Positions 11,825 to 32,964 of a stretch of 64,000 bases of DNA are shown one piece after another. The stretch is taken from IMG/VR virus record IMGVR_UViG_3300027736_000027, positions 1 to 64,000 of that record; one strand, 5' to 3'. Position numbers and translations under genes: made by a program. The stretch is from a virus. How positions within the stretch are numbered: the stretch's first letter is position 1; each line of letters starts with the position of its first letter. The notes under the pieces are model-generated. The model made no database searches, was not told the origin of the DNA, and worked only from the letters and a program-made list of their open reading frames with translations.

Positions 11825-12778
11825 TTAAAAAGAATAACTACGATTTACCATAACGTTTTCTTCAGCAACCGGATCATATATAGAAAATTCAATTTTACCA
11901 CCATGATAAAGTTGATAATCGACGTTATAAGTTGGATTAATTTCTTTTACTTTTATGTCTGCCACAAACGCAACATTATTTAAATACTCTCGAGGCTCTT
12001 CTTCAGGAATAAAAGAGTCTGCAGCCTGTGACCATGCATCGCTTAATATTTCGTCAAATGTATCTTCAGAAATATCAAGATTTTCTTTTAATAGCCTACG
12101 ATATCTGCGTGATACAGTTTCGGTTACTGAGTCTGTAAGTAATGGGCTGGTTGGGTCTACTATAAAATAAAAGCCGGCAGCCGCAAACTCGCCGCGGTTC
12201 ATTGGTATTTCGGTACCATCAATACTCGCTCCACCTGGAAATAGTGTAATTAGGCTAAGTGCCTTTTTGCCATTGGTTAGTGTACCTAGTTCAGCAGTAA
12301 TTAAATTTACTCGGCTGGTTGGTTTTCTTTTACCTGGGGCTATTTTAACAGCCTCTTTTCTTCCATCGGGCATTGTGTAATCCTGCATCATAGCTACTTC
12401 CTCTGGCCCGGCCTTTGCTACACCCATTTCTCCAACCTTACCGCCATTAGCGGCTAACCATTTTACTCGGCCACTGGCCTCTTCGGTTGGTGGAGTATTA
12501 AGTAATTTTTTAGCAACCTGTCTAAGGTCTACACCGGTTTTGAATAATGAACCTGGTTTTGCCCCATCTAAGTGTCTTTCCGCAATATGACCGGCTGTCT
12601 CTTCAGAAAAAAGTAGGACAAAATTATCTGCTTCAATTAGGTCTGACCCGGTTGCTTTTACTTTACCTTTTAAAAATTCATTTTTGTCTATTAGAGCCTG
12701 GATCTCTTGTGAAATATCTGCGGCTTCAGTATGTGATTCATTGATATATTGACTAAACAATTTAATATGTTTCGGCAT
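11825..12778 (-). CDS. Leader-bearing protein, possible RNase-toxin-like domain
   Basis: MPKHIKLFSQYINE; HIAERH...PGSLF...LITLFPG; GATAAATA at 12797-12804 (-). Confidence 0.65.
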   Translation of the reverse strand: MPKHIKLFSQYINESHTEAADISQEIQALIDKNEFLKGKVKATGSDLIEADNFVLLFSEETAGHIAERHLDGAKPGSLFKTGVDLRQVAKKLLNTPPTEEASGRVKWLAANGGKVGEMGVAKAGPEEVAMMQDYTMPDGRKEAVKIAPGKRKPTSRVNLITAELGTLTNGKKALSLITLFPGGASIDGTEIPMNRGEFAAAGFYFIVDPTSPLLTDSVTETVSRRYRRLLKENLDISEDTFDEILSDAWSQAADSFIPEEEPREYLNNVAFVADIKVKEINPTYNVDYQLYHGGKIEFSIYDPVAEENVMVNRSYSF

Positions 12779-13007
12779 GGGTTCTTATTTTTTTATTATT
12801 TATCTTCTTTATTGCCCAGGTTCTGGCTCTTTTTGTGCACATAAACACAGGTGCGCGCCTACCCTTACAATATAAAATATACCTAAACTATACACTATAC
12901 CAGGTCTACCTATCAGAAAAAAAAAAGAAATATACCAGGCTACCTAGCCAGGTACCAGACCCTCAACCCTATTCAAGATACCCGTCTACACTAGCCTGCA
13001 GACCGGG

Positions 13008-13249
13008 ACTAGGGAGTACCTGGTACCTGTATAGAACAGACTCTAACCGGACCCGGCCCAGTGGGACTAGGGAGTCCCGGCCAGCCCGGACCAGCCGGCC
13101 CAGGAGCAATCTGCCCAGGTGGGACTAGGGAGTAAACCGGACCCTTGCCCCGGCCACCGGACCCCAACCTGACCAGGTGGGACTAGGGAGTACCCCGGCC
13201 GGGCTCTGTCCTGTGGGTACCAACCCGGCTTGCTCAAAGACTAGGGAGT
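13008..13249 (+). repeat. Five ACTAGGGAGT motifs at exact 58-bp period with dissimilar GC-rich spacers
   Basis: Motif starts at 13008, 13066, 13124, 13182, 13240; first four extend to GGGACTAGGGAGT. Confidence 0.95.
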
Positions 13250-13389
13250 ACGGTGGCCCTCGACTCCGCGGCTCTACCGGATTCCCAGGGGTCTCGAGAG
13301 GGCCCGGCAGTTGGACACTAGTAGCAGGCTGCGGGACACGGGCAGGCCAGGCTTCCCGACAGGTAGCCGAGGCCCAGATAGATAAAACC

Positions 13390-14025
13390 ATGGAAGAAGA
13401 AGAAATAGGGTCCCTGAAGCCTTTTCCGTCAGGGGAGTTGATGTATAAGAAGGATGCAGCCAAGTTTGCTGGGGTCTCGTTGAAGACACTGGAGGGTTAT
13501 GTAGCTAAGGGTGTAATAAACAAGTGGAAGAATATTGTAAACGGCCGGACCTACTATGACAAGCAGGAGCTCTTGAAGATGATAGGCAGTCGCTTGCCGC
13601 AGAAGAGGCTCGTGATCGCCTACTGCCGGGCAGCACCGTTCCCGGATCGAGGAGCGGCCGGGGTTTCGGTACTGGCCAGGTTACAGGCACAGACGGACCG
13701 GGTACTCGGATATTGTACCGCAGCTGGGGTCCGGGTTGACGAGATAATCCAAGATACGGGTAAGGCTGGTAGCCTAGCTGGCCGATCAGGTCTCGATAGG
13801 CTCTTTGAGACCGTGCTTCGCAAGCAGGTAAGTATGGTTATAGTTGAGACTCCGGACCGGCTGGCCAGGTTTGCAGGTGCCGAGATTCTAGAGAGATTCC
13901 TGACCTGGCACGGTGTTGAACTGCATATAATACAGAAAGGATTACATCTAGAAGAGTACAGGGAAGAATTAAAAGAGGATCTATCTTATCTTATATTAGA
14001 GTCAAGAGCCCTGATTGGGGATTAA
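13390..14025 (+). CDS. IS607-family TnpA-like serine recombinase (MerR-like HTH + resolvase domain), catalytic Ser apparently replaced by Ala
   Basis: KKDAAKFAGVSLKTLEGY HTH; IAYCRAA in place of YARVS; GRSGLDRL; ETPDRLARF; EELKEDL. Start re-called to ATG 13390; no tnpB adjacent. Confidence 0.85.
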   Translation: MEEEEIGSLKPFPSGELMYKKDAAKFAGVSLKTLEGYVAKGVINKWKNIVNGRTYYDKQELLKMIGSRLPQKRLVIAYCRAAPFPDRGAAGVSVLARLQAQTDRVLGYCTAAGVRVDEIIQDTGKAGSLAGRSGLDRLFETVLRKQVSMVIVETPDRLARFAGAEILERFLTWHGVELHIIQKGLHLEEYREELKEDLSYLILESRALIGD

Positions 14026-14903: not shown

Positions 14904-15109
14904 ATAGATTAAATATTTAGCGTGCCACCTGGCTGACGTCTGCTGTAACTTATTTATGTTATTTATATCCCATAAAAACCCGTTTTGTTTATAAATTCAC
15001 ATAGCGAACCTGGTCCGGAGTTCTCCCCAGCTCGAGCGGAGGTCCAGAACCCATGGGGGTCGGCACGGGCCCGGGGCTGCAAACTGTAGTCCACTAGCGG
15101 ATAGAGCCC

Positions 15110-15135
15110 AAAAAAGGGAACCATTACGGTTCCCT
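15110..15135 (-). terminator. Intrinsic terminator
   Basis: AGGGAACC-5nt-GGTTCCCT stem with U-tract on minus strand. Confidence 0.8.
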
Positions 15136-15164
15136 CTTCATTGCTAACCAATTAACCAATTAAC

Positions 15165-16328: not shown

Positions 16329-17429
16329 TTATTGGCTGATGATAGGCTCAGAGTCAGAGTCAGTATCCGGTTCTTCAACCTCAGCTGGTCTGCCAACTGA
16401 CATAAAAAGATCAGTAAACTTGGACTCAAGTTCAGAACGCTTGTCCCTCTCTTGGTCGGCCAATTCGGCAACTTGGGTCTCTTGTCTCCATGAAGTTGCA
16501 TCCCAACGTACTTCACCTTCTACTAGGGAGTAGTATAGTCGCTTACCGATTAGGCTGCCTCCACGACGGTTCTTCGAGAACTCTACATATCTTCGACCGG
16601 CATCATCAAACTTAATCTCCATCATTGATGTTGTTGCATGTTTAAGGTAGGTACTTCCAACATATTGACCGCCTTTAGTCATGTGCTGAATTGCAAAGAT
16701 TGTTTTGCCTTTCTTATCAGCGGCTTCAATAATTAAGTTAGTTAACCAGGTCATGGCTCTGGTACTTTTCCAGCCAAGGATATCTGCTAATTTTACAATA
16801 ATATCTTGATGCGAGTCAATTAAGATAACATCATAGTCACCATTAATTGTGTCCTCCAATATCTTATCAAAGCGACCCATAACATAGTCCATCACGAGTA
16901 AGGTTGGCACATTTGCAATAATAGGGGTTTTTTGATAATAGAAGTAGAGGTCATTACGTGTCATCTCACTAGAGATATAGAGTATCTTTGCCTCAGGCTG
17001 AACTCGCTTAATCTTAGCCAAGATATCAAGTGTGACTGTTGATTTACCAACACCACTTTCGCCGATTACAATATTTGCAGTACCTGAATAGATACCACCG
17101 TCTTCCGTATGGTCAGAAAATAACTGGTCAATAAGATCGCCAGATTTCCAGGCAGTAAATGGCGGAAACTCCATATTGCCAATTTCAATTACTTCAGCCA
17201 CCATTTCGGTTGGTATAACTGGTTGAACCGGTACTAGGGAGTTCGGCTCGGTGCCGTCTTTTAACTTCTTTACAACTCCATTAAAGAGACCATAACTTAC
17301 CCCGGTCTCGGTTGAGGTTGTCATATACTGAGTATATAACTGTTGAACACTGCGGTCATGTGGTACTTGACCTTCATAAGCTTCTGTAAAGAATGCTCGT
17401 ACATCTAATTCTTTTTTGCCGATTTGCAT
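16329..17429 (-). CDS. RadA/Sms-like RecA-family ATPase (no Zn finger or Lon-like domain)
   Basis: Walker A GESGVGKST, LYISSEM, Walker B LIDS, HMTKGGQYVG, KNRRG (cf. RadA KNRFG). Confidence 0.85.
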   Translation of the reverse strand: MQIGKKELDVRAFFTEAYEGQVPHDRSVQQLYTQYMTTSTETGVSYGLFNGVVKKLKDGTEPNSLVPVQPVIPTEMVAEVIEIGNMEFPPFTAWKSGDLIDQLFSDHTEDGGIYSGTANIVIGESGVGKSTVTLDILAKIKRVQPEAKILYISSEMTRNDLYFYYQKTPIIANVPTLLVMDYVMGRFDKILEDTINGDYDVILIDSHQDIIVKLADILGWKSTRAMTWLTNLIIEAADKKGKTIFAIQHMTKGGQYVGSTYLKHATTSMMEIKFDDAGRRYVEFSKNRRGGSLIGKRLYYSLVEGEVRWDATSWRQETQVAELADQERDKRSELESKFTDLFMSVGRPAEVEEPDTDSDSEPIISQ

Positions 17430-17549
17430 AGGTTTTCTGTTTTGGTTAATTGGTTTATACTATATTATTATACTACAGTTTGCCACAATTGGCTTAAGTA
17501 CTTCAGTTTTTATTATTTATTCGACATCAGTACTAGGGAGTCCAACCGG

Positions 17550-17765: not shown

Positions 17766-17838
17766 AATCTATAGGGGTTAGTTGGTTAGAGTAAATATAA
17801 GTATAATTTTTGACATCTAAAAATAAAGTTATTAACAA

Positions 17839-28917: not shown

Positions 28918-28968
28918 AGTTGATCAGGTTTAGGTATTGGTTAAGGTTAATATACTATATACTCGGGA

Positions 28969-29154
28969 CTAGGGAGTCGTCTGGTTATTGAGTTTAGAGA
29001 CTCGTTGCCAAAACTCGTTAAATCCGGGTTGGTTGTCGGGTATCACTGAGCTCTGTAGCCGTGGACCAGTGCCGTACTCTAAGTTTACTGGGGTTCCAGC
29101 CGTCTCGACCTGGCCGAGTAGGCTCTTAATAAAGGTTGCAATCTGCTTCTTCAT
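28969..29154 (-). CDS. Hypothetical protein
   Basis: 61 aa; stop codon lies inside an ACTAGGGAGT site. Confidence 0.65.
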   Translation of the reverse strand: MKKQIATFIKSLLGQVETAGTPVNLEYGTGPRLQSSVIPDNQPGFNEFWQRVSKLNNQTTP

Positions 29155-29372: not shown

Positions 29373-29460
29373 CGTTAGTTGGGTTAGTTGGTTGGTTAAA
29401 TATAAGTATAATTTTTGACACAAAAAAATAAAGTTATTAACAGTTCGGGACTAGGGAGAC

Positions 29461-29622
29461 CTACCTGTTAAATGCCTTGGCCTCGGCTATCATTTCTTTT
29501 GCCTGTTCTTTTACAGATTTAATATCTGCATGTGGAGCTCGTGCCTTAAAATAGCTAACGACTTCGGATACTTTCATTTTGCCTGACTCGGCAATCATTT
29601 CTCTAATTTGATTAATTGTCAT
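29461..29622 (-). CDS. Small hypothetical protein (53 aa)
   Basis: Read manually: MTINQIREMIAESGKMKVSEVVSYFKARAP...; behind cassette. Confidence 0.65.
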   Translation of the reverse strand: MTINQIREMIAESGKMKVSEVVSYFKARAPHADIKSVKEQAKEMIAEAKAFNR

Positions 29623-29719
29623 GGTTAATTGGGTCTAAGGGGTTAGTTAAATATAAGTATAATTTTTGACACGGAAAAATAAAGTTATAGACAATATCAC
29701 TAGGGAGTAGTTGCGGACC

Positions 29720-32467: not shown

Positions 32468-32668
32468 GCCTACCTGGCCTGCCTGGATAGAGCCTACCTG
32501 GCCTGCCTGCCGGCAGCCTGTACCGGCTCCTGGCCAGTACCCCTGGCTAGCCCTGGCTGCTGCCTGGATAGAGCCCGGCCTGCTGCCAGGGTCACTCCTG
32601 GAGTCAATACCAGGCAGCCCTGGGACCACTCCTGGAGTCAGCCAGGGTCACTCCGGGAGGTGCCCCGG
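32468..32668. repeat. GC-rich short repeats with CCNGG phased at ~11 bp
   Basis: CCNGG at 32529, 542, 552, 563, 574, 586, 597, 610, 619, 631, 642, 653, 664; duplicated GCCTACCTGGCCTGCCTG and CACTCCTGGAGTCA. Confidence 0.85.
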
Positions 32669-32740
32669 TAGTGAACTATGCCCCTATAAAAAAAGTCTCC
32701 AGGAGCAGAACTCATGACTTTTTTATATTTTACCTGGTGC

Positions 32741-32955
32741 CCCCAGGTCCAGGAACCGTCTCAGGAGCAATTTGCCCTTTTATCGGGCTCGTGGATCTTC
32801 CCCCAGGTACGGGGACTCTTCCGGGTTAATTTGCCCTTTTATCTGGTTCGGGGATCTCCCCAGGTACGGGGCCTCTGCCTGGCTAATTTGTCCTAAGTGC
32901 TGGTTCCTGGATTCCCCCAGGTCCAGGGCCGGTTTGGAACTAAATTTAGCCAGGT
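32741..32955 (+). repeat. Four imperfect tandem units of 57-60 bp
   Basis: CCCCAGGT(A/C)C at 32741, 32801, 32858, 32915; AATTT(G/A) element at 32769, 32828, 32885, 32943. Confidence 0.85.
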
Positions 32956-32964
32956 CTGTTGCTG

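Follow-up and report, generated by a model that had tools for sequence, protein, structure and literature searches.

Introduction

Canonical transposases (TnpA) of the IS607 family bind short direct repeats that adjoin the gene encoding them, and bring two segments of DNA together ahead of any chemistry (PMC6188088). In IS1535, for example, four 9-bp direct repeats at the left end are the nucleation site for TnpA, which pairs two ends of the DNA, and the ends and targets of IS607 carry GG (PMC6188088). Here we describe a relative of these proteins, REC, encoded at 13390..14025 on the + strand of a 64,000-nucleotide stretch of viral DNA (the window: positions 1 to 64,000 of IMG/VR record IMGVR_UViG_3300027736_000027), together with a 10-bp word, ACTA(G/C)GGAGT, that is repeated in front of the gene and across the neighbouring early module. 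REC has kept the fold of its transposing relatives and has lost their nucleophile.

In serine recombinases the nucleophile is the Ser two residues past a conserved Arg (Y-x-R-x-S). The pocket residues of REC discussed below have as their equivalents R8, D67, R68 and R71 of gamma-delta resolvase. Domesticated transposases are well known among DDE enzymes. In the literature searched we found no description of the REC family, nor of a serine transposase that a virus lineage has kept among its core genes once the nucleophile was lost.

A serine recombinase fold without its nucleophile

REC is a 211-residue protein encoded by an open frame in an island of 65% GC within a phage genome of 38% GC. Its relationship to the IS607-type TnpAs is evident by several routes. 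Pfam recognises a Resolvase domain (PF00239, E 3e-12), the alignment beginning at profile position 15, past the catalytic Ser, and gives a sub-threshold match to HTH_17 at residues 21-65. When a profile of the REC family is compared with the PDB, it matches 3lhk, 3lhf, 6dgc and 3ilx, all of them IS607-type TnpA catalytic domains. The AlphaFold2 model of REC (pLDDT 82 overall, ~66 in the loop described below) finds 3lhk and 6dgc as its top Foldseek matches, with probability 1.00, TM(target) 0.75-0.77 and rmsd 2.1-2.5. The domain order is that of IS607 TnpA, with a MerR-like helix-turn-helix (HTH) at the N-terminus and the catalytic domain at the C-terminus. The HTH, of MerR/excisionase type, covers residues ~17-66 (13438..13587, +), as delimited by the HTH_17 match and the model elements E17-19, H20-27, H31-39 and H58-66. 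A homodimer prediction for REC scored 0.38, the mark being 0.42, which speaks neither for nor against a dimer.

Codons 13621-13635 read Y78-C-R80-A-A and are followed by PFPDRGAAGVSV. On alignment with canonical TnpAs, whose pattern is YxRVS[S/T]xxQ, Ala82 falls at the nucleophile position and eight extra residues are seen between the conserved Arg and helix A. The former active-site loop (Y78-R97; 13621..13680, +), made up of YCRAA and the 8-aa insertion, contains no conserved Ser by either this alignment or the family census below. REC does keep GRSGL (residues 134-138), ETPDRLARF (153-161; 13846..13872, +) with D156, R157 and R160 of the serine-recombinase pocket, and the C-terminal helix (188-209). 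The original prediction for this gene had been of an IS607-like serine recombinase with YCRAA in place of YARVS, its frame open and its HTH, GRSGL, DRLARF and C-terminal helix intact, and the open reading frame (ORF), Pfam, alignment and model all agree with it. Lacking the Ser needed for a covalent link to DNA, REC should therefore no longer carry out transposition or recombination.

The loss was then assessed across the family. A word-index search retrieved 63 close cluster representatives of REC, at 48-98% identity, and the loop was surveyed in a sample of 103 distinct family proteins; wherever a source bears a taxonomic name, it is viral. Ala stands at position 82 in 92 of the 103 proteins and Ser in nine, and Y78, R80, Q101, D156, R157 and R160 are kept in 100% of them. 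Replacement of the nucleophile thus holds for the family and not just for the window. The same cannot be said of a substitute that had been raised along with it, the downstream Ser93 of 'GVSV': no column of the loop is richer in Ser, but Ser stands there in just 68% of the 103 proteins, the loop is free of Ser in 11 and two have neither Ser nor Thr.

More distant viral HTH-resolvase proteins, at ~30% identity (P0077-P0089 and L138:9393-9986), are also without the canonical Ser, and many have in addition lost D-R-x-x-R (TKCRL, NWSRL). Judged from these proteins, the phage-borne IS607-like proteins of sister lineages seem to have moved further away from catalysis. Among cultured phages, a nucleotide search gave no match, and tblastn with REC found ordinary IS607 copies only, at ~30% identity.

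Synteny, copy number and selection

REC adjoins homologues of the genes g14526, g15165 and g16329 in all 25 IMG/VR loci, and its identity falls in step with that of its neighbours (70/67%, 45/49%, 32/32%), overall from 98% down to ~30%. A search from g16329 likewise leads to a REC-like gene in the syntenic place wherever a relative has enough flanking sequence. Every genome yields a single Resolvase match, among them a 100%-complete record of 270 kb. The absence of tnpB, noted from the start, is confirmed by a Cas12f1-like_TNB search which was empty in the record itself and in two near-complete relatives while its control matched in eight genomes. The locus is not that of an IS607 mobile element, being single-copy, without tnpB and set among constant neighbours with which it has co-diverged.

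Nei-Gojobori estimates of dN/dS for REC range from 0.02 to 0.31 (pairs with dS 0.07-0.5), indicating strong purifying selection and not neutral decay, and the frame is open in 58 of 58 complete copies. The idea that REC is merely the decaying remnant of an IS607 insertion would account for the missing catalytic Ser and the missing tnpB, but it is excluded by these selection data, the open frames, the invariant residues and a synteny fixed over deep divergence, and we give it practically no credence. REC is no insertion sequence but a gene of long standing, passed on vertically within a clade of freshwater T4-like jumbo phages of ~250-270 kb. Absence of a conserved nucleophile, single copy, fixed synteny, co-divergence and purifying selection together give good support to the view that it is no longer a transposase and yet is retained; since it departs from the IS607 family in both its nucleophile and its mobility, it should not be filed as a transposase.

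REC had also been described as the sole convincing + strand gene between 3.7 and 32.9 kb. That description is acceptable, since the rival + ORF at 20001-20750 is the spurious antisense of a minus-strand ORF, 19685-20479, which encodes a Thr/Ser-rich early-module protein with TTTT(S/I)... runs.

A phased array and a dispersed 10-bp word

The word ACTA(G/C)GGAGT takes the form ACTAGGGAGT in the window, its G/C variant form being ACTACGGAGT. Five copies of ACTAGGGAGT, at 13008, 13066, 13124, 13182 and 13240, make up a phased array ahead of REC (12993..13260, +) with an exact spacing of 58 bp. Between the array and the late gene 11825-12778 (-), which has GATAAATA 18 nt upstream of its ATG, composition reveals an AT-rich divergent control region (12779..12992), where homology with close relatives begins at ~12780. 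Arrays are present in ~40 distinct loci, with 2-5 copies and a period of 57-58 bp (50-51 bp in one locus), and their last copy lies 132-151 nt upstream of the REC ATG. The spacers are GC-rich and C-skewed, spacer sequence is not conserved, and conservation of the word itself extends for no more than ~13 nt. These short direct repeats beside the gene, spaced at 57-58 bp, are candidate binding sites.

Beyond the array, seven exact copies and one matching at nine of ten bases lie between 16.5 and 29.7 kb, all on the + strand. Two are inside g16329, one at 16522..16531 (codons Y-S-L-V on the minus strand) and one at 17233..17242 in the N-terminal linker (N-S-L-V), the latter at the same position in distant relatives; a third is intergenic, upstream of that gene (17532..17541). 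A further copy (24113..24122) lies inside the gene for a phage sigma-70-family protein, 23536-24258 (-), and the next, at 24361..24370, is intergenic and upstream of an early promoter. The remaining copies are intergenic at 28968..28977 and upstream of early promoter cassettes at 29450..29459 (the 9/10 match, ACTAGGGAGA) and 29699..29708. Elsewhere in the 111-kb record ACTAGGGAGT does not occur, and its count was never reached in 100 shuffles.

The one-sidedness of the word is general. In 11 related records it occurs 9-16 times on one strand and not once on the other, starting at REC and spanning 8-25 kb of the early module, and in near-complete records (one 100%-complete of 270 kb, one 94%-complete of 253 kb) it is absent outside this cluster. 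Over 82 distinct REC loci, 331 exact sites are co-oriented with REC and one is opposite. In G011, the most distant relative of g16329, a REC-like gene and the motif are both missing.

In most clades the word also enters the coding sequence (CDS) of REC itself, as CTA CTA GGG AGT, read L-L-G-S, in the linker past the HTH. In one clade the CDS holds two copies at a distance of 57 nt, of which the second encodes A-V-L-G-S right after YCRxA, and in the most distant clade an in-CDS GGGACTACGGAGT encodes A-G-T-T-E-S at the former Ser position. The word thus occupies codons where the nucleophile used to be.

Several further observations concern the word and its surroundings. Among close strains, with REC identities of 86-98%, the array varies at its left edge by whole units of 58 bp: when 12960-13020 is compared with L033:1975-2200, L040:1020-1210 and L038:2040-2250, the extra units carry a degenerate GGGACTAGGGCAAGG and the breakpoints fall inside the motif. 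In the last of these contigs, ~2.2 kb upstream of REC (L038:74-273), a partial duplicate of the AT-rich control region (like 12796-12882) is fused to a duplicated 3' end of REC (~105 nt, like 13921-14025; 83% identity). The GC-rich intergenic region 14904-15164 contains a strong minus-strand terminator (15108-15140) and a degenerate remnant, CCACTAGCGGATAG; four relatives have an exact motif copy directly after the terminator, and in one RNA contig 76 nt at 14911-14988 are replaced by 27 others. The sigma-70-family factor of the early module is a full one (regions 1.2, 2, 3 and 4), and the copy at 24113 within its gene, which is followed by the second copy upstream at 24361, is kept in position in one relative. 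At the other end of the early module, a second GC-rich island (32550-32960) has ~60-bp periodic repeats with three near-palindromes (ACTCCTGGAGT twice, ACTCCGGGAG once) sharing the GGAGT half of the 10-mer, and ends in a TATAAATA box before the first + late gene (32999).

A contig from RNA run X20 joins the promoter cassette at 17792-17837 (~17.8 kb) to the sequence GTTCGGGACTAGGGAGACCTACC of 29.44 kb (~29440-29470), meaning that a variant genome has both cassettes joined. This suggests shuffling or deletion between repeated early promoter cassettes, as in the PeSLs (promoter plus stem-loop) of T4-type phages. Metatranscriptome contigs that cover the locus were not used as evidence: those from four studies cover g14526-g16329, two reach the 3' half of REC and none the array, and neither strand nor absence is readable from them.

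Such rearrangements, along with the form of the sites, bear on whether REC might still be an active recombinase, with a displaced nucleophile (a loop Ser or Thr, or Tyr78), that excises or shuffles early-gene cassettes. The sites do resemble minimal core sites, with ACT/AGT arms, an asymmetric core and an invariant GG, the pocket is invariant, and cassette variants exist in the array units and the joined RNA contig. However, no loop hydroxyl is conserved, two family members having neither Ser nor Thr there; recombination at sites inside essential conserved genes would delete parts of those genes; and the rearrangements are explained by ordinary recombination between repeats. We regard continued recombinase activity as very improbable.

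Selection on the word as DNA

At the two sites inside g16329, Ser-Leu is always written TCC CTA in every motif-bearing genome, whereas synonymous changes occur in the surrounding codons for Arg, Leu, Tyr, Gly and Glu. One of the sites forms an island in a linker that is otherwise unalignable. Moreover, the encoded residue tracks the motif variant, CTA giving Leu and the GTA of the ACTACGGAGT clade giving Val. Fixed codons amid synonymous variation, and a residue that follows the variant, mean that the word is selected as DNA; from these codon comparisons, it is held by nucleotide-level selection inside coding sequences.

Several specific interpretations of the array and the word were tried and set aside. 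An RNA element in the array finds no backing, with Rfam empty (at gathering thresholds and at E<=1), no transfer or transfer-messenger RNA found by ARAGORN and folding that does not surpass shuffled sequence (z-scores of +0.55 and +0.77). A translated N-terminal extension of REC through the array is precluded by the 58-nt period, which shifts the frame, and by the TAG in the motif, which stops one frame; an ORF from 13177 is an artefact of GC-richness. A fixed genome end at the array gains no support from five ~270-kb assemblies of one phage type, which start at different places. An apparent depletion of one-mismatch variants (28 against 66 for a reversed-pattern control, in five records) is confounded by avoidance of CTAG and was not used.

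The word is also unlikely to be a promoter element. Intergenic copies lie between a terminator and the next early promoter at variable distances from the -35 and -10 boxes, and therefore do not behave as a promoter box; with no fixed distance and no conserved downstream -10, a MotA-box-like or sigma promoter element was rejected. The resemblance to a T7-like promoter (...ACTATAGGGAGA) was likewise discounted, given the lack of conservation past ~13 nt and of any PF00940 match, the latter a weak argument since the control matched nowhere.

These results are relevant to the possibility that some other phage or host factor, such as the sigma-family protein or an early protein, reads the motif, and that REC is merely regulated through it while having an unrelated DNA-binding or structural role. 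The evidence that ties REC to the motif is indirect, copies are found also in and before the sigma gene and g16329, and covariation between HTH and motif (G or C at core position 5) is phylogenetically confounded and not clean. On the other hand, tandem phased copies occur nowhere but at REC, where their register with the ATG is fixed and copies lie in the CDS too; IS607 TnpAs bind direct repeats beside their own gene; the motif is no promoter box, for the reasons just given; and there is no match to a T7-like RNA polymerase, with the same proviso about the control. A different reader of the word appears to us distinctly unlikely.

REC as a probable late gene

In 17 aligned upstream regions a conserved block is seen just before REC, corresponding in the window to GATAGATAA (13377..13385, +), 4 nt upstream of the ATG and the sole AT-rich island in the GC-rich leader. 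The box common to all clades, (G/T)ATAAATAA, resembles T4 late promoters and lies 4-7 nt upstream of the ATG; elsewhere in the window [TG]ATAAATA is found 6-31 nt upstream of other ORF starts. A late-type box in this position indicates that REC is probably a late gene.

This timing has a bearing on the reading of array and REC as an iteron-type replication origin with its initiator, in which the AT-rich stretch would be unwound and the dispersed copies would act in copy control or handcuffing. The arrangement is suggestive in several respects: repeats precede the gene and recur in its linker-coding part, as in lambda O, the AT-rich 12779-12990 borders directly on the array with its high GC content and C skew, the minus strand is G-rich, which favours an R-loop primer, and a DnaB/RecA-like ATPase is among the neighbouring genes. 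Against this, a spacing of 57-58 bp is atypical, co-oriented sites spread over 8-22 kb are not a feature of origins, the box of REC is late-type and not early, and REC has no homology to known initiators, general Pfam and PHROGs scans with it having given no Rep or initiator family match. An origin here is, in our estimation, improbable.

A lineage with the word inverted

One lineage, G006, has its sites in the opposite orientation. Its gene order and gene strands are as in other records, but 16 of 16 copies of ACTACGGAGT are on the strand opposite to the early genes and REC, with none on the other, and at the homologous position in the g16329 linker the copy is inverted too (G-G-T-T-E-S against D-S-V-V). 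The REC-like protein of this lineage is 197 aa long, reads YVRVG... and has D156 replaced by Cys. The wholesale flip means that what is conserved is only the mutual co-orientation of the sites and not their direction relative to transcription. It thereby speaks against a polar roadblock to transcription and against a role tied to promoters, and favours either synapsis among parallel sites or a rule of 'one strand only'. Since the 16/0 cluster persists in G006 though D156 is lost, a binding role fits better than a catalytic one.

A rule of 'one strand only' recalls phages with localized nicks, namely tf and Rembedalsseter (WACTRTGAC), the phiKMV-likes (CGACxxxxxCCTA/CTCCGG) and T5 (PMC3517423, PMC11780129). 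Each carries an exact word of 9-10 bp on one strand only, clustered and conserved in position (in 13-14 copies in the tf group), at which virion DNA is nicked; phiKMV nicks are in the non-coding strand and T5 nicking genes map to the late region (PMC3517423, PMC11780129). By analogy, copies of ACTA(G/C)GGAGT may mark single-strand nicks in packaged DNA, REC being a late-made recognition subunit or nicking enzyme whose conserved Arg/Asp pocket would use water or a loop hydroxyl instead of the lost Ser. Sites would be confined to one strand so that the other holds the genome together, and the choice of strand would be arbitrary. The signature is the same as that of the published motifs, an exact 9-10-mer on one strand, clustered and conserved in position, here with 9-16 copies per record, and the G006 set, flipped as a whole yet unidirectional, follows naturally. 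All 103 close members keep the pocket residues unchanged, the box before REC is of late type, and the GC-rich 58-bp spacers might be expected to keep closely spaced nicked segments annealed. Furthermore, five of 60 contig left ends are within 3 nt of a motif start.

Contrary to this, there is no known relative among serine recombinases that hydrolyses or nicks, the G006 cluster persists with D156 changed to Cys, tandem arrays of nick sites have not been described, and known nicked phages are without a REC-like gene, the tblastn matches in cultured phages being ordinary IS607 copies. Contig ends too are explicable, by strain differences in the number of array units with breakpoints in the motif. 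We consider nicking at the word unlikely, though it is the strongest of the alternatives. The motif-initial contigs are independent metagenome contigs (L044, L052, L056, L060 and L057, beginning GGGACTAGGGAG... or ACTACGGAG...), whose starts may stem from assembly breaks at repeats that vary among strains, or may be physical ends of the DNA.

The more specific proposal that a Ser-less IS607 relic provides the enzyme or targeting subunit for programmed, strand-specific nicks in the packaged genome is slightly less likely again. Nicking by REC would account at once for the strict unidirectionality, for its reversal as a whole in one lineage and for 58-bp spacers that are rich in GC. If true, a serine-recombinase fold would have turned from covalent strand exchange to nicking, offering a class of nickase for the unexplained localized nicks of phages.

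A proposed role for REC

The explanation that we favour, and hold somewhat more probable than all else combined, is that REC derives from TnpA and is made late to bind or bridge DNA at specific sites without recombining it. It would be a domesticated IS607-family TnpA that keeps the HTH, the resolvase fold and the arginine pocket while the Ser is gone, with the asymmetric word ACTA(G/C)GGAGT as its predicted target. REC would assemble on the 57-58-bp-phased array before, and in some clades inside, its own gene, and also load on the co-oriented copies dispersed over the neighbouring early module, so as to bridge or mark early-region DNA late in infection without cutting it. Likely consequences would be shut-down of the early region or its insulation from the late genes to the left, or its organisation for replication or packaging.

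We infer recognition of the word by REC because canonical IS607 TnpAs bind adjacent direct repeats and pair DNA. The original prediction had the protein retained for DNA binding or synapsis rather than transposition. Its second element, that REC is retained and is not a transposase, is well supported; its first is suggested by the intact HTH, the direct-repeat binding of IS607 TnpA (PMC6188088) and the motif array before and inside the gene.

A number of points weigh against the binder or bridger. The link between REC and the motif is positional and phylogenetic only, and HTH residues show no clean covariation with the G or C variant. The spacing of 57-58 bp contrasts with the ~10-bp helically phased repeats of IS1535, and the inversion of the G006 sites with respect to REC and the other genes makes their geometry to REC's own gene variable. 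Simple binding does not explain the GC-rich spacers. Perfect conservation of the Arg/Asp pocket would seem to exceed the needs of a scaffold consisting purely of HTH and dimer, and may leave room for residual chemistry, for example nicking.

REC and its candidate sites constitute a concrete, testable protein-site system in uncultured jumbo phages. Should REC bind and bridge only, it would represent a new kind of phage genome-organising or early-shut-off factor.

Comparison with known systems

The closest relatives of REC are the IS607-family TnpAs (IS607, IS1535, ISC1926 and ISC1904; structures 6dgc, 6dgb, 3ilx, 3lhf and 3lhk; PMC6188088), which share with it ~27-32% identity, an HTH followed by a resolvase fold, the Y, R, Q and D-R-x-x-R pocket residues, and short asymmetric direct repeats right upstream of the gene. 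REC differs in having Ala for the nucleophile Ser, an 8-aa loop insertion and a shorter region past helix E. It differs also in being single-copy and of fixed synteny, without tnpB and transposon ends, and in having repeats 57-58 bp apart and scattered over 8-25 kb where those of the IS607 type are ~10 bp apart.

The repressor function of Tn3/gamma-delta resolvase at res offers a parallel to the binding role proposed for REC, since there too a serine-recombinase fold sits at sites in a divergent control region before its own gene. That resolvase, however, is an active enzyme, has its domains in the reverse order and uses only three dimer sites, with no genome-wide unidirectional set.

The nick motifs and ACTA(G/C)GGAGT have in common that they are exact, asymmetric words of 9-10 bp with ~10-16 copies on one strand, at conserved positions in one genome region. 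The nicked phages are small podoviruses or T5-like and have no REC-like gene or phased array, and their nicking enzymes are mostly unidentified; in the phages here, nicks are predicted from sequence. Iteron origins (lambda O/ori, plasmid Rep-iteron systems) resemble the REC locus in their repeats beside or inside the linker-coding part of their own gene and in the adjacent AT-rich stretch. They are set apart by REC's lack of initiator homology, its 57-58 bp period, its late-type box and its many distant co-oriented copies.

Finally, the PeSL cassettes of T4-type phages (PMC2839356, PMC4122927) are similar in placing repeated regulatory words between small early genes, in a hyperplastic region of T4-like type, and in the shuffling of cassettes in variants. 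A PeSL is a promoter plus stem-loop, whereas the 10-mer described here has no fixed relation to -35 and -10 boxes, lies also inside conserved coding sequences and is phased at REC.

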